This document shows positions 1 through 24,123 of a stretch of DNA of 24,123 nt, in pieces. The notes beneath the pieces were generated by a model. That model was not told the origin of the DNA. It was given only the letters and a program-made list of their open reading frames with translations, and did not search any database. Source of the DNA: Trichormus sp. ATA11-4-KO1 (GTDB taxonomy: Bacteria > Cyanobacteriota > Cyanobacteriia > Cyanobacteriales > Nostocaceae); contig JAHHIM010000051.1 in assembly GCA_019358915.1 (NCBI GenBank), positions 1-24,123 on the forward strand, written 5' to 3'. Position numbers and translations under genes: made by a program. Each line of letters starts with the position of its first letter. Position 1 is the stretch's first letter.

Positions 1-128
1 GTAAATAATAATGAGTCTGTTTGCAATTAATGTGAGCCGAAGTCTTTTTCTGTTTGCAATTAATGTGAGCCAACAATTTTCTTGTTTGCAAGCCGGAGCG
101 TTTATGTTTGCGAGCCGCAACATATATA
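1..128 (+). repeat. Left terminal inverted repeat (pairs with 23992-24118), containing phased TGTTTGC motifs
   Basis: 1-128 matches the reverse complement of 23992-24118 except position 2 and the 39-50 spacer. TGTTTGC occurs at 18, 51, 83 and 105. Confidence 0.95.
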
Positions 129-220: not shown

Positions 221-283
221 ATGGCGTTAGTTGTCGGCATGAGCGCCCTTATATCAATGAATTGATAAGACTTTGAGGTTCTT

Positions 284-311
284 ATTACACGTAATAGCCC
301 CAACGTGTAAT
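284..311 (+). other. dif-like 11-6-11 tyrosine recombinase site (left of GNAT)
   Basis: ATTACACGTAA-TAGCCC-CAACGTGTAAT. The arms are inverted, and the left arm matches the E. coli XerD arm ATTTAACATAA at 8/11 positions. Confidence 0.6.
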
Positions 312-341
312 GTAGCCTAAATTAAGAGCGCCGCTGAAATG

Positions 342-851
342 CTACTGTACGTTAGCTCCATATTTCTTTTCAAGATAGTGAACTTCAGGATCATCTTCCC
401 GTTGCCCTAAATCAACCCATCCGTGCTTGAGATAAAATCTCATTGCCACTCGATTCGTAGGACTGACGTTCAAGCGGGCTGACTGACAACCCAGACGCTT
501 GAAAAAATGAGCTGCGTGTTGATCTAACTGCTGACCAAAACCCTGACCTCGAAACTCTGGAGTCAGGTAAAACAAATTGACGTAGCCAACGCTTGAATCG
601 TGTTTCCAACGCATCATCTCAATTTGCCCAATGATTTGCTCTTCTTTCCAAACGTGTACACAACTGTTCGGGATTTCTGTCATTCGCTGTCTCAGCCACT
701 GTAAATATTCCTCAGATCCGCTTCCATCCTCTTTATAAAACCGAGCGGCTGAACCAAAGCTGCAAATGAAAGAGTCTGCTCTGAACTGAACGCATAAATC
801 TTGATCTCGCTCTAGGTTGATAAGTTTGAACTCAAGCGTAGAAGATTGCAA
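342..851 (-). CDS. GNAT family N-acetyltransferase
   Basis: Acetyl-CoA motif YLTPEFRGQGFGQQL and C-terminal NRVAMRFYLKHGW; TTG start with GGAG upstream. Confidence 0.9.
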   Translation of the reverse strand: MQSSTLEFKLINLERDQDLCVQFRADSFICSFGSAARFYKEDGSGSEEYLQWLRQRMTEIPNSCVHVWKEEQIIGQIEMMRWKHDSSVGYVNLFYLTPEFRGQGFGQQLDQHAAHFFKRLGCQSARLNVSPTNRVAMRFYLKHGWVDLGQREDDPEVHYLEKKYGANVQ

Positions 852-907
852 TCTTGTTGCTCCAGGCTAAATTTGTGCGTTGTTTTTTGGTTCGTGATTC
901 ATGCAGC

Positions 908-935
908 ATTACACATTAGAGCCATTACGTGTAAC
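908..935 (-). other. dif-like 11-6-11 site (right of GNAT), inverted relative to 284-311
   Basis: Reverse complement reads GTTACACGTAA-TGGCTC-TAATGTGTAAT, 23/28 identical to the left site. Confidence 0.6.
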
Positions 936-1269
936 ACACGGTTCAAACTCTTCTGGCTTCATTCATGTCTAAGACGCGATCGCCTAGTCTAAGGAACGAC
1001 CGAGCAAGAGCATTGCGAAGCCGCACCCACCTCAAACCCTTATATATCAAACTTTTCTCTGAGTCAGTAAATAAATTTTCTTACTTTTTTCTTACCTACG
1101 CTAATAATCATAAGTAAATTTGCAAGTTAACAAGATAACTCATAGATATAAATCGATGTAAAAAACTCTCCTTTCAAATCACAACAGGCATTAGATCAGC
1201 TTGTAATTAATTTAGCTTTAGATTACTGAGATACCAAGACCGTGTAAAAGTGGTCAATTTCTAGCTATA

Positions 1270-1411: not shown

Positions 1412-2062
1412 ATGAAAATTGCAGTTTTGAACCAAAAGGGAGGCAGTGGCAAGACTACAGTATCCATCCATTTGGCTCATGCTTTTTCTATGAAAGGGTA
1501 TCGAGTATTACTTGTTGATACTGACCCTCAAGGCTCAACCCGTGACTGGGCAGCAGCACGTAATGGTGAAGCTCCATTTAGCGTTATTGGTTTGGATCGT
1601 CCTATCTTGCATAAAGAATTGCCCAAACTAGCGCAGGGGTATGATTTTGTTTTCATTGATGGTGCGCCAAGAGTTTCTGACTTAACCAGATCAGCAATCA
1701 TGGCAGTGGATTTTGTGCTGGTTCCTGTGCAACCATCTCCCCTGGACGTGTGGGCGGTGCATGAGGTAGTAGAACTGGTACAAGAGGCCACTATATATAA
1801 ACCAGACTTAACAGCAGCATTTCTAATCAACAGAAAGATAGCGAACACTGCTCTTGGGCGAGAAGTAACTGAAGTTTTAGGAGAATACCCCTTTCCAGTG
1901 CTAAAAGCACAGATAAGTCAAAGGGTAGCATTTGCTGAGTGTTTGAACATTGGGAGTACTGTTTTGGAGGCTGCCCCGAAAAGTGCTGCCAGTGATGAAG
2001 TACGAGCTGTTGTTGAGGAAATATTAGAAGCAAGAAAGGAAACTAATCATGGCAGAAGTTAA
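1412..2062 (+). CDS. parA: ParA/ParF-type Walker-box partition ATPase (type Ib)
   Basis: NQKGGSGKTT deviant Walker A, LVDTDPQGS, FIDGAP, VPVQPSPLD; short, with no N-terminal HTH. Confidence 0.95.
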   Translation: MKIAVLNQKGGSGKTTVSIHLAHAFSMKGYRVLLVDTDPQGSTRDWAAARNGEAPFSVIGLDRPILHKELPKLAQGYDFVFIDGAPRVSDLTRSAIMAVDFVLVPVQPSPLDVWAVHEVVELVQEATIYKPDLTAAFLINRKIANTALGREVTEVLGEYPFPVLKAQISQRVAFAECLNIGSTVLEAAPKSAASDEVRAVVEEILEARKETNHGRS

Positions 2063-2324
2063 AAAATCACAAAAACTAAGCTTGAAGCCAGGTGTTCAGA
2101 AAACACCTGTTCAAGAAGAAGCAGCAGCATGGGTGGAAAGTCGCAATGGTGCTGAAGTGCCTAGTAATATCGTTCACGAAGAAGCTAACAACGGCAAAAG
2201 CAAGCGCGTTACTTTTGAAGTCACCTCAGCACAGCACCAGGAGATTAAAATCCGCGCTACCAAAAAGGGCATGACTATTAAGGAGTATATGATTGCTCTA
2301 GTTGAGGAGGAGCTAAAAAACTAA
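2049..2324 (+). CDS. ParG-like ribbon-helix-helix centromere-binding protein
   Basis: Overlaps the parA stop; flexible N-terminus followed by an RHH pattern KRVTFEV...HQEIKIRATKKGMTIKEYMIALVEEEL. Confidence 0.8.
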   Translation: MAEVKKSQKLSLKPGVQKTPVQEEAAAWVESRNGAEVPSNIVHEEANNGKSKRVTFEVTSAQHQEIKIRATKKGMTIKEYMIALVEEELKN

Positions 2325-2422: not shown

Positions 2423-3439
2423 ATGAGTGATTTAACGGTTAATGATGGTTCATATCAGCAGTTGTTAGATCGCATTGGTGAGTGTTTGGCGTTGGGGCGA
2501 CAACGGGCTTTTGAGCAGGTTAATTCAGTTTTAGTAGAAACTTACTGGCAGATTGGGCGGTATATTGTCGAGTTTGAGCAAGCGGGCAAGGAACGGGCAG
2601 AATATGGCTCGAAGTTGTTACAGGTGCTTTCACGAGATTTGAAAGCTGCGTATGGTAAAGGGTTTAGCCGTTCTAATTTGCAGTATATGCGTCTGTTTTA
2701 TTTGAACTATGAGAATTGCCAAACACTGTCTGGCAAATTGAGTTGGTCACACTATACAGAGCTTTTGGCTATTTCGGATGATTTGGCGCGGTCATTTTAT
2801 GAGCAGCAGTGCATCCAAGATCGCTGGAGTGTGCGGGAGTTGAAACGCCAGAAGGATTCGGCTTTGTTTGAGCGGGTGGCGTTGAGTAAGGATCGGGCGG
2901 AGATTTTGGCACTGGCTAAGGATGGGCAACGCATCGAGTCGGCGCGGGATGTGGTCAAAGATCCTTATGTGTTCGAGTTTTTGGATTTACCAGACCGCAA
3001 TTATCGTGAGAGTGAGTTAGAAAATCGTTTAATTGCTGAGTTGGAGAAGTTTCTACTTGAGTTGGGCAAGGGGTTTGCATTTATTGGGCAGCAATACCGA
3101 ATTACGTTAAACAACACGCATTTTTTTGTGGATTTGGTGTTTTATCATCGCATTCTCAAGTGTTTTGTCTTAATCGATCTGAAGACGCGAGCGGTGAGTC
3201 ATCAGGATATTGGACAGATGAATATGTATCTAAATTATTTTCGCGCTGAGGAGAATATGGAGGATGACAACGAGCCGATAGGAATTGTGTTGGCGCGAGA
3301 TAAAGATGAGATTTTGGTTGAGTATGCGACGGGTGGTATTTCTAATCAGCTTTTCGTGTCGAGATATCAGCTTTATTTGCCAGATCCGGAGGTTTTAAAG
3401 CAGGAGTTAAGGCGGCTTTTGGAGGTAAATGATGGGTGA
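2423..3439 (+). CDS. DUF1016/YhcG family PD-(D/E)XK nuclease-domain protein
   Basis: Family motifs YWQIGRYIVEFEQ, LSWSHY, WSVRELKRQ, KDPYVFEFL, FLLELGKGFAFIGQQ, DLVFYHRILKCFVLIDLK, GQMNMYLNY. Confidence 0.93.
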   Translation: MSDLTVNDGSYQQLLDRIGECLALGRQRAFEQVNSVLVETYWQIGRYIVEFEQAGKERAEYGSKLLQVLSRDLKAAYGKGFSRSNLQYMRLFYLNYENCQTLSGKLSWSHYTELLAISDDLARSFYEQQCIQDRWSVRELKRQKDSALFERVALSKDRAEILALAKDGQRIESARDVVKDPYVFEFLDLPDRNYRESELENRLIAELEKFLLELGKGFAFIGQQYRITLNNTHFFVDLVFYHRILKCFVLIDLKTRAVSHQDIGQMNMYLNYFRAEENMEDDNEPIGIVLARDKDEILVEYATGGISNQLFVSRYQLYLPDPEVLKQELRRLLEVNDG

Positions 3440-3666
3440 GTTGAAATTTTTTGTTTTCGGAATTGCCGTAGATATAGCAAATTCAGTAAATGTTCTTTTA
3501 CTCGGATGATGGAGTTCTACAGCATTAAGAAACTTAGTAATTAATTTCTTACCAAGGGTTATAACGAGTCAAGATATAGCAAGGTGATTGAGAGCCAGTG
3601 CCGCGCAGGCGTATTGCTCTGTCGCACCAGCGAAGCCATTGTTCAAGCCAATACTGAGTTTATCGT

Positions 3667-3912
3667 TTATAAGCCCATTTTGGAACTTATATCGGCTTGA
3701 AGACATTTCAAGAAAACATCACAATCTTGACTACCCTCATGTTTGGGGATAAATATAATCTCTTTTACACAACAATCCAGAGATTCTTTTATATTGACGT
3801 TTTTAGAAATAAAATCACTAACTCTAGGTACAGCTACAAAATTTAATCTGTAAGCACTTAAATATTTAGTTAACTTTTCATCGGAATAAATCTTAACCAA
3901 AATATCAATCAT
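3667..3912 (-). CDS. Small hypothetical protein downstream of the TOPRIM gene
   Basis: 81-aa ATG ORF starting 13 nt after the 3926 stop on the same strand; no recognisable motif. Confidence 0.55.
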   Translation of the reverse strand: MIDILVKIYSDEKLTKYLSAYRLNFVAVPRVSDFISKNVNIKESLDCCVKEIIFIPKHEGSQDCDVFLKCLQADISSKMGL

Positions 3913-3925
3913 TTCTTCAGTATAT

Positions 3926-5053
3926 TCAGTAAATAACTTTGCCTAAATATTCTTTGATAATATCAACAATTATCTTAAAATCAACAAAATCGCCAGCTTG
4001 TTTTCTTTCTTCACATATCCATTTGCAAAATTTCATTTTTTGAAATTCTTGAATTTTGTTTTCTTCTCCATACTCCCCATATTTAACTTTTGGCAAATAA
4101 AAATCTTGAGTGAATAAATGATCAGGGAATAGATTTTCAATACCTTTCTTAACTTTTCGATTTTCTTGTTTAGGTATTTTTCTGATTTTTAGTTTTTCAT
4201 GGTCTTCATTAGGTTTATTAGTATCACAATCATAGAGCAGTAATACTTTTTTAGTTAGGAACTGAGGGTTAGAAATAAGAACATCTCTGGTATTATTTAA
4301 GCCACTATCACCAGTATTTATGCTTTTTCCTTTACCTATAGAAGCTCCTACCCATTCAATGTCAGCTTGTTCTAAAATTTCTGTTTCTCCTAGTAATTCT
4401 AAGGCAGTTTTAATATAAATTGGATCTGTTTCTCCTTCTGTCAAAACTAGAGGCTTAGAACCTTTTTCTACAGTTAATTTTACGTCATCCTTAATTGCAT
4501 TAATTTTCTTACAATAATCAAAAAACATCCATTGACCATGTTCAGACATTAGATAACTACAGTAGTCTTCCCATACATGAACAGTCCAATAATTTAGTCC
4601 TTTATGAAGAGCTTCATAAATAGGATGATTTTCTCTATAGCGATAATTTAGAAAGTCTTTAGGATAAGTTACTTCCGTATGAGCTGGTATATTATAACGG
4701 GACATCATTCTTAATAAACCAATTCCCTCAGCTTCCCACATTCTAAGGTGTTGAATTACATAAGATAAATGAGCGGGATTGGAAGAATCTGCAACAACAA
4801 TAATACAAAACCCTAAGTATAGAGGGTTGTCGTATCCTCCTTGAAAATAACCTTTTTCAAAAGCATTAATAATACTTTGTGCTTGATTGTCTTCTAAAAC
4901 ATTGTCAATCCACCAATTAGGAATTTTTTTATCCTCCAATCCATAACCACACATGACCCAAAAACTACCAACAATGTTTTGAGGATACTCTTGAAGTAAC
5001 GCATACGATATTGTACAATTTGTAACACCAATCCTAGGTAAAAGCACTGCCAT
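3926..5053 (-). CDS. Protein with C-terminal OLD-family-like TOPRIM nuclease domain and unknown N-terminal domain
   Basis: LVLTEGETDPIYIKTAL (TOPRIM Glu), LLLYDCDT (DxD), KGIENLF; no Walker A motif; AT-rich gene. Confidence 0.72.
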   Translation of the reverse strand: MAVLLPRIGVTNCTISYALLQEYPQNIVGSFWVMCGYGLEDKKIPNWWIDNVLEDNQAQSIINAFEKGYFQGGYDNPLYLGFCIIVVADSSNPAHLSYVIQHLRMWEAEGIGLLRMMSRYNIPAHTEVTYPKDFLNYRYRENHPIYEALHKGLNYWTVHVWEDYCSYLMSEHGQWMFFDYCKKINAIKDDVKLTVEKGSKPLVLTEGETDPIYIKTALELLGETEILEQADIEWVGASIGKGKSINTGDSGLNNTRDVLISNPQFLTKKVLLLYDCDTNKPNEDHEKLKIRKIPKQENRKVKKGIENLFPDHLFTQDFYLPKVKYGEYGEENKIQEFQKMKFCKWICEERKQAGDFVDFKIIVDIIKEYLGKVIY

Positions 5054-5103
5054 AGCAAAATTTATTATTAGTAAAAATAGAAGGCAGACAAGACATTAAA
5101 ATA

Positions 5104-5706
5104 CTATAAATCACCCCAATCAAAATTCAAGAAACGTCGAGCATTCAGCTTAGTATATTTTTCAGTGTGCTTGATATCGCGGTGTCCCAAAAAGTCCTGA
5201 ATCTCTCTAGTGCTGTAACCCTGGTTCACCAGATAATAACCGCAAGCATGGCGCATCATATGGCAGTGAACTTTGATATCAAGCCCCGCCTGTACCGCCA
5301 GCCGCCCCATTAACTTCCGTACCGCATCAGTGGACATCACTTCCCCACGCTCAGATACAAAAATATATTTGCTATTAGGGAATTGTTCTCTAAGTTTTTT
5401 GAGCAAAGTTATTTCATCATCTCTCAAGGGATGCACCCCAGAATCACTACCTTTCTCCCTGGTGATGTAAATCTGGCGTTCCCCCCACATCACTGCATCC
5501 CAGCGCAAACCGCAGGATTTACCTACAGCTTCCCCCACCCTCAGCCCGTGGCGGAACATAAGCAACATCAGTGTGTAGTCACGGTGAGCATAACGAGCTT
5601 TACGATTTAGCGCGGCATTGAGGAGAGATCGCACCTCGCTTGGTGTAAGGTATTCTCTAGACCTGTAATGCTTGTTAGGTTTACGTCCTGGCGGGGTGGT
5701 CGTCAT
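5104..5706 (-). CDS. FimB/FimE-like tyrosine recombinase (probable plasmid resolvase)
   Basis: REYLT, RHGLRVGE (R), EKGS (K), HMMRH (HxxR), LGHRDIKHTEKY (H, Y). The ORF extends to 5772, but ATG 5706 (MTTTPPG) gives a typical ~200-aa size. Confidence 0.9.
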   Translation of the reverse strand: MTTTPPGRKPNKHYRSREYLTPSEVRSLLNAALNRKARYAHRDYTLMLLMFRHGLRVGEAVGKSCGLRWDAVMWGERQIYITREKGSDSGVHPLRDDEITLLKKLREQFPNSKYIFVSERGEVMSTDAVRKLMGRLAVQAGLDIKVHCHMMRHACGYYLVNQGYSTREIQDFLGHRDIKHTEKYTKLNARRFLNFDWGDL

Positions 5707-5853
5707 TTGTTTGGGATAACTGTCCTCTTTACGCGACTTATTCTGGACACTATAACTCGCTGTGATCCCCATTATTTCGTCAACAAACGCGTCACGCCAA
5801 AGTTATTGCGAACAGTTATCAATTAATCAATACCTCCATCTTGGCTCAATGCT

Positions 5854-5893
5854 AAATAGTCAGTCTGCGATTGCGATCGCAGACTGACTATTT
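5854..5893. repeat. Perfect 18-bp inverted repeat with 4-nt loop overlapping a HIP1 site
   Basis: AAATAGTCAGTCTGCGAT-tgcg-ATCGCAGACTGACTATTT; GCGATCGC at 5873-5880. Confidence 0.9.
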
Positions 5894-6353
5894 GGCTATC
5901 ACTCCACTAGCTGAACAATTTTTCAACCACTGCGCCTTGTTACAGATCATCCAAAACAAGGGATATTGCGACTGCGGCGATCATTCTCACCAAAAGTATC
6001 CCTCTTTGCTTGGACACTTAAGTATCCAATAAAGTAAGCAAAGCCAAGAGCGATTGAATAGGCGGATAACCATAATTAGTGGCTCTACCTAGACCTACAA
6101 CCAGTAGACCGAAAAGTTTTCCAGAAGCCTTGCCAGTCTTTGATTTACGCTTGGGAATACCAGGAGCCGAAATCAGCTTGTAATCTGCGTTTTAAGAACT
6201 TTTGTTCTGGGTGGACTTCAGAGCGATCGCAACTGGCTATGATTGCCAGTCCCAAAAACGACGGCTAAAACCCTCATTGTTTCGTCAACTTCCAAAAGTT
6301 TTCGATCTACTGACAACAGCAATATAGTCGCTCTACAGTAGCTTTATTAAATG

Positions 6354-6372
6354 GTGATATATTGAATATCAC
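6354..6372. promoter_or_regulatory. Palindromic operator upstream of the toxin-antitoxin operon
   Basis: GTGATAT-attga-ATATCAC about 50 bp before the antitoxin start, typical of TA autoregulation. Confidence 0.55.
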
Positions 6373-6419
6373 TTAAATTTACTCAATAATAGAAATAAAC
6401 ATCTCTGGTAGGCACGCTT

Positions 6420-7121
6420 ATGACCGAGCTTTACGGAGAAACTGACCCTAGAGACATTCCCACCTACTCCATTAGCGATGCTGCCCGTTACTTGCGTATT
6501 CCAGTCGGCACTGTTCGATCTTGGACGATTGGGAGACACTATCCAATCTCAAACGGTTCCAGCTTCTTTAGACCCCTAATTCCAATTCGTGATCTTAAAC
6601 CACGACTCCTCTCATTCACCAATTTAGTTGAGGTTCATGTTCTAAGAGCAATTCGCAAACACCATCAAATTGATTTAGGCAATGTGCGAACCGCTCTTGA
6701 TTTTATTGATGAACAATTTCAAGCATCTCATCCGCTTGCTCGTGAACGTTTTCTTACCGATGGTGTTGACCTGTTCATTGAGCGATATGGCTCTTTGATT
6801 AATGCCTCTAAAAAGGTACAAACGGAGCTAAAAGAAGCTTTTGCTGCTCACCTTGAACGAATTGAACCAGACGATACAGGACTTGCAATTAAGCTTTACC
6901 CCTTTACCCGCTCTCACGAGGAAGACAACCCTCGCGTTGTTGTCATCGATCCTCGTATCGCCTTTGGTCGCCTTGTCATCGTTGGAACAGGGATTGCTAC
7001 CAGCGTCTTGGCAGAGCGCTATCAAGCAGGTGATTCAATTGACGAACTTGCTTATGATTACGACTGTGATCGGCTTATGATTGAAGAAGCTATCCGGTGT
7101 GAACTACCTGCTGTTGCATGA
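6420..7121 (+). CDS. DUF433-domain antitoxin (VapB45/Rv2018-like) with N-terminal HTH
   Basis: YSISDAARYLRIPVGTVRSW (HTH), LSFTNLVEVHVL, and C-terminal IDPRIAFGRLVIVGTGIATSVLAERYQAGDSIDELAYDY (DUF433). Confidence 0.9.
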   Translation: MTELYGETDPRDIPTYSISDAARYLRIPVGTVRSWTIGRHYPISNGSSFFRPLIPIRDLKPRLLSFTNLVEVHVLRAIRKHHQIDLGNVRTALDFIDEQFQASHPLARERFLTDGVDLFIERYGSLINASKKVQTELKEAFAAHLERIEPDDTGLAIKLYPFTRSHEEDNPRVVVIDPRIAFGRLVIVGTGIATSVLAERYQAGDSIDELAYDYDCDRLMIEEAIRCELPAVA

Positions 7122-7552
7122 CCCAGCCTCAATCGATTACGTTTTTCATAGATAGATGTCTAGGTAATAAGCGTATTGTACAAACACTTCGCGGTGCAGG
7201 TATCACTATTGAAATTCATGATGAACACTTTGAAAAAGGCGCTCAAGACGTAAACTGGTTGCCAGAGATTGGCAAAAGAGGCTGGGTTGTTTTGACCAAA
7301 GATGGCAGGATTAGCAACAACTTAATAGAAAGGATTGCCGTTGCACGCGCTCAGGTCAAGATGTTTATATTTGCTTCCCAAAGTGTATCAGGAGAAGAGA
7401 TGGCTTCAATCTTTCTAAAAGCGATCATCCCAATGCAAGAATTCGTTCGTAAACATCCTGCCCCATTCATCGCCAAAATCTACCGTGATAGCAGCATTAC
7501 CATGTGGAAGGACAGCGAAAAACTAGTGGAAGAATCACAGCAGTTTTTGTAA
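7118..7552 (+). CDS. VapC45-like PIN-domain toxin
   Basis: FFIDRCLG, DVNWL, GWVVLTKDGRI; ATGA overlap with the antitoxin gene. Confidence 0.88.
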   Translation: MTQPQSITFFIDRCLGNKRIVQTLRGAGITIEIHDEHFEKGAQDVNWLPEIGKRGWVVLTKDGRISNNLIERIAVARAQVKMFIFASQSVSGEEMASIFLKAIIPMQEFVRKHPAPFIAKIYRDSSITMWKDSEKLVEESQQFL

Positions 7553-7702
7553 ACATTTAGCCAAGACTAGCAAAAACTGTTCTCATCATTATACCTTCTC
7601 TATAAGACGCTATTGGTACAGGTTTATCCCTGGCGATCAGGATATTGAAAACGGCTCACCAATTCCTTAGCATAACTTTCTGCACGGTTGCTCATTTCAC
7701 CC

Positions 7703-9094
7703 CTATCCCGGCTGAACCCCTCCCCTCTTAGACATTAATTCTTTTAAAAATTTATATTCTGGACTGCGACATATTAATTCTTCACAAAGCTCAGATGAAC
7801 ATCCTAATTCTTGTAATAAACAAGCTTTTATCATGAAATCAAGTATTTGGTTAATCCGAAAAAGTGTCTCCCCATCATACATTTTTTGTTGAGAAGGGTC
7901 ATTATAATGAGTTAAGTAATTACGGATTGTTTTAACTTTTTTAGTAAAATCTTTAGAATCAATAACAAGAGGCTCAATAGTTTTACTTGTTAAGGATAAT
8001 AGTTCTTTTAATCTTTCTAAAAGCGATGGTTCATGACTAAATTGTAATTTTTCTTTTAACCAATCTCTATATTCTATAGGTATAGCTGCAAGTATATTGT
8101 TTAAACGCGTCTTATGTTCTTCTGTAAATGAATTATGCTTATCAATCTTTCTTCTATGATATGACTCTAATGTTTGAACTAGTGATAACAACTTATTCTC
8201 TTGATATAAATTAGGGTTATAAATAGTACTAAAATACAAATTAATTATGTCTTCTGCTTCGTCAAAAAGATTAAACCATCTTTGCATAACCAGACTAAAA
8301 TGTTCCTTAATATCATCTAAACATAGCAGGGCTTCATGTGTTCGTAAAATATCTGTTTTATTTATATAGTTTGGATTTTTAAATATAGCCTTTATTGTTT
8401 GAGGGTAATCATCAATATCCAGTATAAAAAGCAGTTTTGTTATATAATTTGCTCGATTAGCAGCCAATGTTATAAAGTTTTTTAATGGATTTATAAACTG
8501 GCTAAATATTTCATCTATTGACTTTTTTTCTTTGATATCTACAGTAATTAATGCAGATTTATTTACAGTAATTTCTTGGTTAGTTACTTGTTGGTCTATA
8601 AATTGATTTATTGATATATTGGCTTGGGTAATATTAGCTTTTAAATCTTTTAAAACATGATAGAAAACTTGATATTCTTGATAATTTTTATCACCATTAT
8701 AATTACTATTTAAATTAGTATCCCAGAATAAAGGAGACAAATATTTTAGGTCAGTAAAGCCTACTTGAAATTTATCAAATTTAATTTGCTCTAAGTTATT
8801 GAAATGGGAGCCTATAAGGGCAATTTTTACGTTATAGCTTTGAGTTAGAATGCCTGGAAAGGAACGTTTACTTGTATTCCGATGACAATTTAGCAAAGTA
8901 AATAATTGTCCGTGAGTCACTCCGATAATTATTTCTTGACTTTCCGAGTCAGAATTTAAAAAATCTTGCTCATTAAAGCTACCAACAACTTCAAGCGAGA
9001 TTCCTTTTTCAAAGGAGAATTTTACAGTTCCTGTAACTTCTTGCTGAGGATTAGAAGGGAGCCACCAAGACCCAAACAATTCAAATTCTTCCAT
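7703..9094 (-). CDS. ApeA-like HEPN-domain protein (putative anti-phage RNase)
   Basis: N-terminal GSWWLPSNP...GTVKFS (ApeA N-terminal-domain-like) and C-terminal QTLESYHR, SLLERLKEL, RNYLTH (HEPN Rx4H); AT-rich. Confidence 0.82.
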   Translation of the reverse strand: MEEFELFGSWWLPSNPQQEVTGTVKFSFEKGISLEVVGSFNEQDFLNSDSESQEIIIGVTHGQLFTLLNCHRNTSKRSFPGILTQSYNVKIALIGSHFNNLEQIKFDKFQVGFTDLKYLSPLFWDTNLNSNYNGDKNYQEYQVFYHVLKDLKANITQANISINQFIDQQVTNQEITVNKSALITVDIKEKKSIDEIFSQFINPLKNFITLAANRANYITKLLFILDIDDYPQTIKAIFKNPNYINKTDILRTHEALLCLDDIKEHFSLVMQRWFNLFDEAEDIINLYFSTIYNPNLYQENKLLSLVQTLESYHRRKIDKHNSFTEEHKTRLNNILAAIPIEYRDWLKEKLQFSHEPSLLERLKELLSLTSKTIEPLVIDSKDFTKKVKTIRNYLTHYNDPSQQKMYDGETLFRINQILDFMIKACLLQELGCSSELCEELICRSPEYKFLKELMSKRGGVQPG

Positions 9095-23991: not shown

Positions 23992-24118
23992 TATATATGT
24001 TGCGGCTCGCAAACATAAACGCTCCGGCTTGCAAACAAGAAAATTGTTGGCTCACATTAATTGCAAACAAGAAAATTGTTGGCTCACATTAATTGCAAAC
24101 AGACTCATTATTATTTGC
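23992..24118 (-). repeat. Right terminal inverted repeat containing two perfect 32-bp tandem repeats
   Basis: TTGCAAACAAGAAAATTGTTGGCTCACATTAA at 24029-24060 and 24061-24092; reverse complement of 1-128. Confidence 0.95.
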
Positions 24119-24123
24119 AATGG

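Follow-up and report, generated by a model that had tools for sequence, protein, structure and literature searches.

Shuffling of dif modules is known from Acinetobacter, where it is run by the host XerCD recombinases (PMC13141974, PMC11705084, PMC6449649), and a two-step route has been proposed for single modules (PMC13141974, PMC11705084). In these modules, cargo lies between inverted 28-bp 11-6-11 sites with unlike spacers, single modules are replaced with their left and right spacers kept, cointegrates are described, and sites may alternate in arrays. The Nostocaceae loci analyzed here, bounded by sites with spacer TAGCCC (A) or TGGCTC (B), share these features, the alternating array being found in L092. 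Compared with these modules, the arms of the Nostocaceae sites are near-symmetric instead of being divided into an XerC and an XerD arm, two spacers are fixed across genera where the modules have many, and a res-like accessory motif lies outside each site; no XerC or XerD was found among the 12 recombinases scanned, and the arms track a plasmid-borne 183-aa enzyme instead. In PMC11705084, two Acinetobacter sites were examined for accessory sequences and none were found nearby. We found no description of such sites in cyanobacteria in the literature covered, with subscription papers, older pDU1 work and supplements (e.g., that of PMC3025954) largely outside its scope. What appears to be new is a dif-module-like swap in Nostocaceae with plasmid-resolvase-type sites; the dif-module architecture as such is known from Acinetobacter.

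Integrons also move variable gene cargo by means of a tyrosine recombinase acting at defined boundaries. They differ from the loci described here, where no intact close copy of the gene for the 183-aa enzyme lies beside the A/B slot (72 loci; IntI was outside that search), a symmetric site of the double-stranded type is present at both ends of a cargo that may hold several genes, and replacement rather than tandem accumulation is mostly seen. In engineered recombinase-mediated cassette exchange, one recombinase acts on heterospecific lox or FRT pairs, and a double crossover swaps the bracketed cargo. The A/B system likewise appears to combine one recombinase with two mutually mismatched spacers around the cargo, but it is natural, and its orthogonality, as judged from sequence counts, is visibly leaky. 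With the pDU1-type resolvase and its res site, the window sites share an identical arm consensus and upstream flank motif; in contrast to gene-linked sites, which have private spacers, they are paired, have common spacers and lack a recombinase gene. We take the pDU1 enzyme to act in resolution; no support for this role was found in the literature covered, older pDU1 work being outside its scope.

Paired sites on a mobilizable plasmid

The window, i.e., the whole 24,123-nt stretch of DNA analyzed, is contig C51 of its genome and represents a mobilizable plasmid with parA, a parG-like gene, a primase, mobC and a relaxase. The partition genes (1412..2324, + strand) belong to the backbone beside the slot, outside the cassette, and ATTACA-rich, parC-like direct repeats are located before parA (1260-1400) and after parG (2322-2375). 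Further along, positions 2423-9094 hold accessory genes for a YhcG/DUF1016 nuclease, a DUF433 and PIN toxin-antitoxin-like pair, and an ApeA-type HEPN protein, without any A or B site bounding them.

An earlier note on this DNA had described inverted 11-6-11 sites around a single gene, and both observations hold. Site A occupies 284..311 (+ strand; spacer TAGCCC) and site B occupies 908..935 (- strand, read 935-908; spacer TGGCTC). They are identical at 23 of 28 positions, their spacers differ at 2 of 6, and controls exclude chance. The 596-bp segment between them has one ORF only (342..851, - strand), encoding a 169-aa GNAT acetyltransferase (Pfam PF00583, Acetyltransf_1, E 1.3e-15). Elsewhere in the window, a single weak match at 3827 was found at up to 6 arm mismatches. 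Across the genome, four sites score at least 30 bits; the next 11-6-11 match scores 18.7 and the reversed control reaches a maximum of 15.5, a gap that is partly circular since the matrix was trained on these very sites. Scores of at least 30 bits arise solely at 6-bp spacing between the arms. The two further strong sites are C39:29774 and C10:65211, the latter with spacer B, chromosomal-type gene surroundings and no partner within 10 kb. The site A 28-mer recurs identically in another genome (G279:C134), between unrelated flanks.

The motif ATTACA is common to the sites and to the repeats near parA and parG, and it had been suggested that the sites could be bound by the ParG-like protein, as its operator or as parC repeats. 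A ParG homolog is encoded in only 4 of 72 site-bearing loci, and sites also occur on chromosomes and ahead of a recombinase gene. This explanation is rejected, its probability being next to negligible.

Site family and cargo exchange

The earlier note had proposed a matrix scan for sites at cargo boundaries; pattern searches revealed a widespread family. With the spacer left free, the site pattern was found in 106 of 389 genomes of the family, with 5 matches in 4 genomes for the reversed control. A pattern with eight spacers identified 138 sites in 71 of 127 Nostoc-genus genomes, with none in the reversed control; by hand count, 79 have TGGCTC, 56 TAGCCC, 2 TAGCTC and 1 TAGCCA. About ten of the 138 are near-identical rows and probably orthologous, and two that were checked scored below the matrix threshold. 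Spacers are thus not variable in the manner of pdif sites, as the earlier note had supposed, but fixed to two types (135/138 in Nostoc-genus genomes). In a sample of the phylum, the A/B pattern was found in 7 of 35 other genomes of the family and in none of 265 genomes from other families, and no viral contig contained a match. These counts place a dif-module architecture in heterocyst-forming cyanobacteria, where it extends to more than half of the Nostoc-genus genomes covered and apparently uses the site of a plasmid resolvase.

Neighboring sites are of unlike type. All 27 neighboring pairs are A+B, and 25 of them face inward, enclosing 596-5,593 bp; the 72 fetched loci were chosen from match lists and are enriched for pairs. 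In the unselected list, a strict-pattern neighbor is present within 10 kb for 38 of the 138 sites, giving 20 adjacencies, each of them A-B. By that pattern the remaining 100 sites are solo, some of them with weaker or decayed partners (e.g., L053, L055, L240 and L242), and decayed sites are seen in L006 and L171-L190. Matrices built separately for left and right arms (46 sites) converge on one consensus. Minor orphan spacer classes were also observed, namely TTAGGA/TCCTAA, GACTAA/TTAGTC and ATGCCC (L027, L032, L035, L044, L123, L244, L268 and L269); the first two also precede recombinase genes, which suggests further site lineages.

The cargo is diverse. Scanning of 34 proteins, covering 33 of 47 cargo ORFs, identified GNATs, SnoaL, GFA, GMC oxidoreductase, CHAT, RRM and P-II proteins, NB-ARC/TPR proteins with a small partner gene, and an ECF sigma/anti-sigma/cupredoxin cluster, and some cassettes have no long ORF. 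One recurring arrangement, usually beginning beside site A, has a gene of 132-152 aa (no Pfam match in the three copies scanned) and, after it, one for an NB-ARC or TPR protein (L050, L051, L069, L072, L085, L086, L091, L097, L099 and L100); it is reminiscent of NLR-like defense or signaling modules. In a shared chromosomal slot of L105 (4195-6624), two genes lie beside a B site that occupies A's usual place; from their starts we presume them to encode a membrane effector and a nucleotide cyclase, in a Pycsar-like arrangement.

If cargo is exchanged at the sites, one slot should be found with different contents, and one cargo in different slots. Both were observed. L055, a 39-kb contig, tracks the window's backbone to position 310 and then continues into a different 1.3-kb cassette, and L240 likewise leaves the window backbone for other cargo at the site. 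In plasmid8 of Nostoc commune HK-02, A and B occur in the same order ahead of parA and enclose 863 bp without an annotated gene. L094 and L100 diverge only at the final one or two bases of A, and identity returns just past B. On the chromosome, L086, L095, L099 and L229 represent one slot whose contents differ, similarity breaking off at A and B; related TPR repeats are common to L099 and L086. Conversely, the cassette of L055 is shared with L092, part of the 7.9-Mb chromosome of G207, over its site-to-site length of 1,361 bp (97.4% identity), with unrelated outer flanks, and L094 and L096 have a common 4.7-kb cassette with identical A-to-B polarity. Among 594 internal alignment ends (82 sites), 168 fall within 5 nt of a site where about 19 would be expected if uniform, in pairs that are not independent, from related genomes, and with the conserved site itself pulling alignments to its far edge. 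A clean empty chromosomal slot was not seen among 30 loci, in which slots were filled, sites had decayed or the site region was lost; the query contained a genomic repeat that confounded this search. These comparisons show that each socket has an A site at one boundary and a B site at the other, and that cargo and flanks are reshuffled at them. The pdif-style cassette of the earlier note thus stands in that sites of the tyrosine-recombinase type bound exchangeable cargo; it does not stand with respect to the enzyme or the variable spacers.

Arms, accessory motifs and a candidate recombinase

In the window's own genome, the site on C39 is located 19 nt ahead of the ATG of a 183-aa tyrosine recombinase that is 79% identical to the pDU1 integrase (NC_008440) and consists of a catalytic domain only. 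Its R43, K68, H131, R134, H157 and Y166 are intact and, we assume, represent the usual catalytic residues. A site 17-19 nt upstream was found in 15 of 15 protein-search rows at 87% identity or more, and in 25 of 25 when pattern-found and duplicate rows are included. Three rows at 76% and pDU1 itself have a diverged site 26-28 nt upstream (28 nt in pDU1), and none of 12 rows at 64% identity or less has one. For this scoring, only A and B sites had been used to train the matrix, and rows without a gene start were dropped. This comparison shows that the arms of A and B are those found before the 183-aa pDU1-type recombinase, and that they change as the recombinase diverges. The spacers of gene-linked sites are private: by hand count, 34 different spacers occur in 42 rows, and neither A nor B is among them.

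The similarity extends to the outer flanks, which in A and B sites resemble DNA upstream of gene-linked sites (36 vs 74 dereplicated flanks, Mann-Whitney P 4e-6). With a matrix made from the upstream flanks of res sites, the outer flank of site A (262..283, +) scores +9.0 and its inner flank -27, and the outer flank of site B (936..957, -) scores +11.4 and its inner flank -25. The GA.TTTGA motifs reported earlier were confirmed at 269-276, within the outer flank of A, and at 950-943, and this resemblance explains them. Every site is thereby shown to bear a res-like accessory motif on its outer side, which would be a candidate for binding or another function. Mosaic loci link the A/B and gene-linked site classes: in L054 the initial 58 nt of the recombinase gene come after a B site, and in L094, L100 and L101 A sites have the res upstream flank. 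The possibility that A and B enclose an intact recombinase gene, as in an autonomous element, was considered and rejected: no such element was found, L054 retains just those 58 nt, and no gene-linked site has an A or B spacer.

Nostoc edaphicum pNe_4 (NZ_CP054696, L249) consists of two 87%-identical plasmids joined head to head. It has replication and relaxase genes in two copies each, and two sites, at record positions 27752 and 52354, form its points of symmetry. One site lies between diverging recombinase genes, the other between two upstream flanks. Taking the assembly as deposited, pNe_4 is the footprint of a fusion at res sites. Its junction spacers have 3 of 6 bases in common.

A host Xer-like enzyme, the plasmid's FimB-like recombinase, both named in the earlier note, or another recombinase might act on the sites instead. 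The arm has 8 of the 11 bases of the XerD arm in Table 1 of PMC13141974, the closest likeness to that arm. Neither the 12 tyrosine recombinases scanned from the window's own genome nor the plasmid's FimB-like enzyme reach the XerC or XerD cut-off (best XerC score, 142 vs 335 bits); these are 12 of 20 PF00589 matches in a genome that is 99.9% complete, and the other 8 are short FimB-like, pDU1-like, integron-like or fragmentary frames. Because distinct XerC and XerD arms and a host XerCD are both lacking, we do not place the cyanobacterial sockets in the Xer/pdif family. Prediction of dif was unsuccessful for cyanobacteria according to PMC3025954, and the A/B sites are not that missing dif: unlike a chromosomal dif, they are patchy, with no match in 283 of 389 genomes of the family or in any of the 265 from other families, and several copies per genome where present.

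The FimB-like gene (5104..5706, - strand), for a 200-aa tyrosine recombinase, is on the same plasmid as the window sites and has the full catalytic motif set. It is only 24% identical to the 183-aa enzyme and probably does not act on A and B: it occurs in 8 of 72 site-bearing loci, and its homologs have their own, different conserved upstream motif. Ahead of the gene, in window positions 5707-5796, there is a dyad at 5733-5760 (8/11 matched), and a related motif of the form TGTCC...GGACA, common to seven FimB-like homolog copies, is a candidate cognate site. Co-occurrence of the A/B sites with the 183-aa clade is itself weak, which could speak for a further enzyme. Even so, arms that track the 183-aa enzyme make a host Xer, FimB-like or other recombinase distinctly improbable, and a small plasmid recombinase rather than the host's own most likely swaps the cassettes.

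That weak co-occurrence is seen as follows. A close recombinase was found in 20 of 127 Nostoc-genus genomes, and by hand count A/B sites occur in 13 of these 20 vs 58 of the 107 without one, in a comparison where plasmids are transient and may be absent from draft assemblies. In the 72 site-bearing loci, the 183-aa gene is represented by two fragments and five distant homologs, with no close copy that is intact. The 13/20 and 58/107 counts suggest that most sockets are idle at any time, are served by a visiting plasmid, or that another enzyme exists.

The many site-bearing genomes without a close recombinase would also fit inert scars, i.e., res sites spread by old plasmid fusions, with cargo differences resulting from ordinary insertion and deletion nearby. 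The decayed sites, and a breakpoint 22 nt from a site at the B side of the GNAT cassette, point in the same direction. We consider this improbable, since arms and two spacers are conserved across genera, A and B are strictly paired, breakpoints coincide with sites, and the 97.4%-identical cassette extends from site to site in two replicon types.

In the sister clade of the 183-aa enzyme at 51% identity (L130-L139), the gene is preceded by a separate conserved dyad, TTACATTGT...ACAATGTA, and the clade may have orphan sites of its own.

Proposed cassette exchange and the GNAT cassette

We favor, as rather probable, the explanation that the window's GNAT gene is one cargo in a two-site socket whose contents are swapped by A×A and then B×B recombination, catalyzed in trans by a plasmid resolvase. 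The recombinase, supplied from a co-resident plasmid (here C39), would bind all four arms, and spacer identity would pick the recombination partners. A×A recombination between two replicons would form a cointegrate, and B×B recombination would then resolve it with the contents between the sites swapped. A and B of one molecule, differing at 2 of 6 spacer bases, would rarely recombine, so that the cargo stays put, and rarer mismatched A×B events that leave spacers intact would flip or drop cassettes, giving rise to solo sites. In its usual role, the enzyme probably resolves dimers of the plasmid that encodes it, at a site with a private spacer. What the comparison of loci shows is exchange at the sites; for the enzyme, the order of the two steps and the role of the outer motif, we infer the above from the distribution of arms, spacers and flanks.

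Exchange by this route is expected to keep each flank with its spacer and side. Among 157 clustered half-flanks (of 218), 127 keep their family's spacer and side, and 30 break the strict A×A/B×B rule. Of the latter, 15 switch spacer only and 13 switch spacer and side, and in either register 4 of 6 bases agree between A and B; 7 of the 15 spacer-only switches stem from the merging of two distant families via the common outer motif. A switch of side only, the register in which A and B match at 2 of 6, was seen in 2 half-flanks. These 30 exceptions, together with the 3/6 match of the pNe_4 junction spacers, indicate that spacer matching is not absolute. Crossover inside the 4-bp AGCC core was considered and rejected, hybrid spacers being nearly absent (TAGCCA in 1/138 and GAGCCC in 0/150 listed rows).

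The same enzyme and sites could act mainly by excision and insertion, with A(+) and B(-) recombining at the directly oriented AGCC despite the mismatched spacer; a cassette would leave as a circle and a solo site would remain, into which circles could insert. Most sites are indeed solo, and L076, which has the backbone of HK-02 plasmid8, one A site and then a flank resembling the usual outer-B flank, looks like an emptied slot. The excess of spacer-and-side over side-only switches (13 vs 2) and the pNe_4 exchange between spacers matching at 3 of 6 bases are consistent with this route as well. Against it, AGCC-crossover hybrids are scarce (a spacer-preserving route stays compatible), 127 of the 157 flanks retain their class, replaced cargo leaves both A and B in place, and no excision joint was found in run X1, in contigs that drop rare forms. 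Excision and insertion as the main route is therefore unlikely.

The inverted orientation of the sites had also raised the possibility of an invertible segment, i.e., a phase-variable switch for the GNAT gene. Because of the 15 spacer-only switches, and because L091 looks flipped relative to its spacers, occasional inversion is likely. As for a simple switch, the spacers mismatch at 2 of 6, most cargos have long leaders or several genes in mixed directions, and neither inversion nor excision joints were detected in contigs of runs X1-X4 (searched at a 1% share; contigs cannot show rare forms, and X1 may be the window's source). Such a switch is very improbable.

Returning to stepwise A×A and B×B exchange, it may, more tentatively, form part of a natural cassette-exchange standard across the Nostocaceae, in which one small plasmid resolvase and two orthogonal spacers allow any cargo with A and B at its ends to enter any socket. 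If so, A and B spacers would be kept apart from the resolvases' private spacers, and sockets would reside on plasmids or at fixed chromosomal positions. Such a standard would be a naturally occurring equivalent of engineered heterospecific exchange and would not depend on host Xer; NB-ARC/TPR, acetyltransferase, oxidoreductase and sigma-factor modules would move by it, and it could be used directly for knock-in. A 183-aa candidate enzyme, only two spacers and natural examples in the hundreds should make the debated two-step cointegrate model for single modules simple to test, and the enzyme and site pair could serve as a native cassette-exchange tool for Nostoc.

The GNAT cassette itself has a composite structure. 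The earlier note had asked whether GNAT homology ends at the sites, and it does so at site A: L006 and contigs of metagenome runs X2 and X4 align with the window from about 305-312 onward, and at the site A position a related site with spacer ATGCCC is present in both L006 and X4. The metagenome search gave four matching contigs, one apparently the window's own. The cassette end from site A to the GNAT stop codon (312..341) is common to other GNAT copies. At the B side, homology ends near the site rather than at it. Nine protein-found relatives at 81-96% identity carry no site detectable at up to 5 arm mismatches, and their homology stops at 885 in six and at 881 in one, two copies being truncated. 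Position 885 is 22 nt inside site B and closes a native GNAT leader (852..885, - strand) that is common to the site-less relatives. The adjoining 22 nt (886..907, - strand), joined to this leader, match the inner flanks of site B in HK-02 plasmid8 and of site A in L240, and are a remnant of a family of cassette-end flanks that also adjoins other A and B sites. We infer that the GNAT cassette arose by a deletion that joined a cassette end to the GNAT leader, probably fusing the two at a short AAAC overlap. None of 12 DNA-found GNAT-related loci has a detectable site, and the GNAT cassette was seen in no second slot.

The window's plasmid was opened at a multi-copy transposon, the ends of which form the terminal repeats of the window (1..122 and 23998-24123). 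An identical end is found on 10 contigs, which it breaks, and besides C51 it terminates C32, C39, C45, C52, C56, C59, C61, C67 and C68; it begins with TGT and has internal repeats of 32-33 nt. The transposon is flanked by 6-bp target duplications in C51, C39 and C45, so each of these is probably a circular plasmid with one insertion. Tn552-like elements have a preference for res sites, and by analogy a similar preference is possible for this transposon, which lies 161 nt from a site in C51, about 80 nt in C45 and 12 kb in C39. The site in C45 (G000:C45:207-235) also belongs to this family, scores 25.6 bits and has a 7-bp spacer; it lies close to the replication gene of that plasmid contig.
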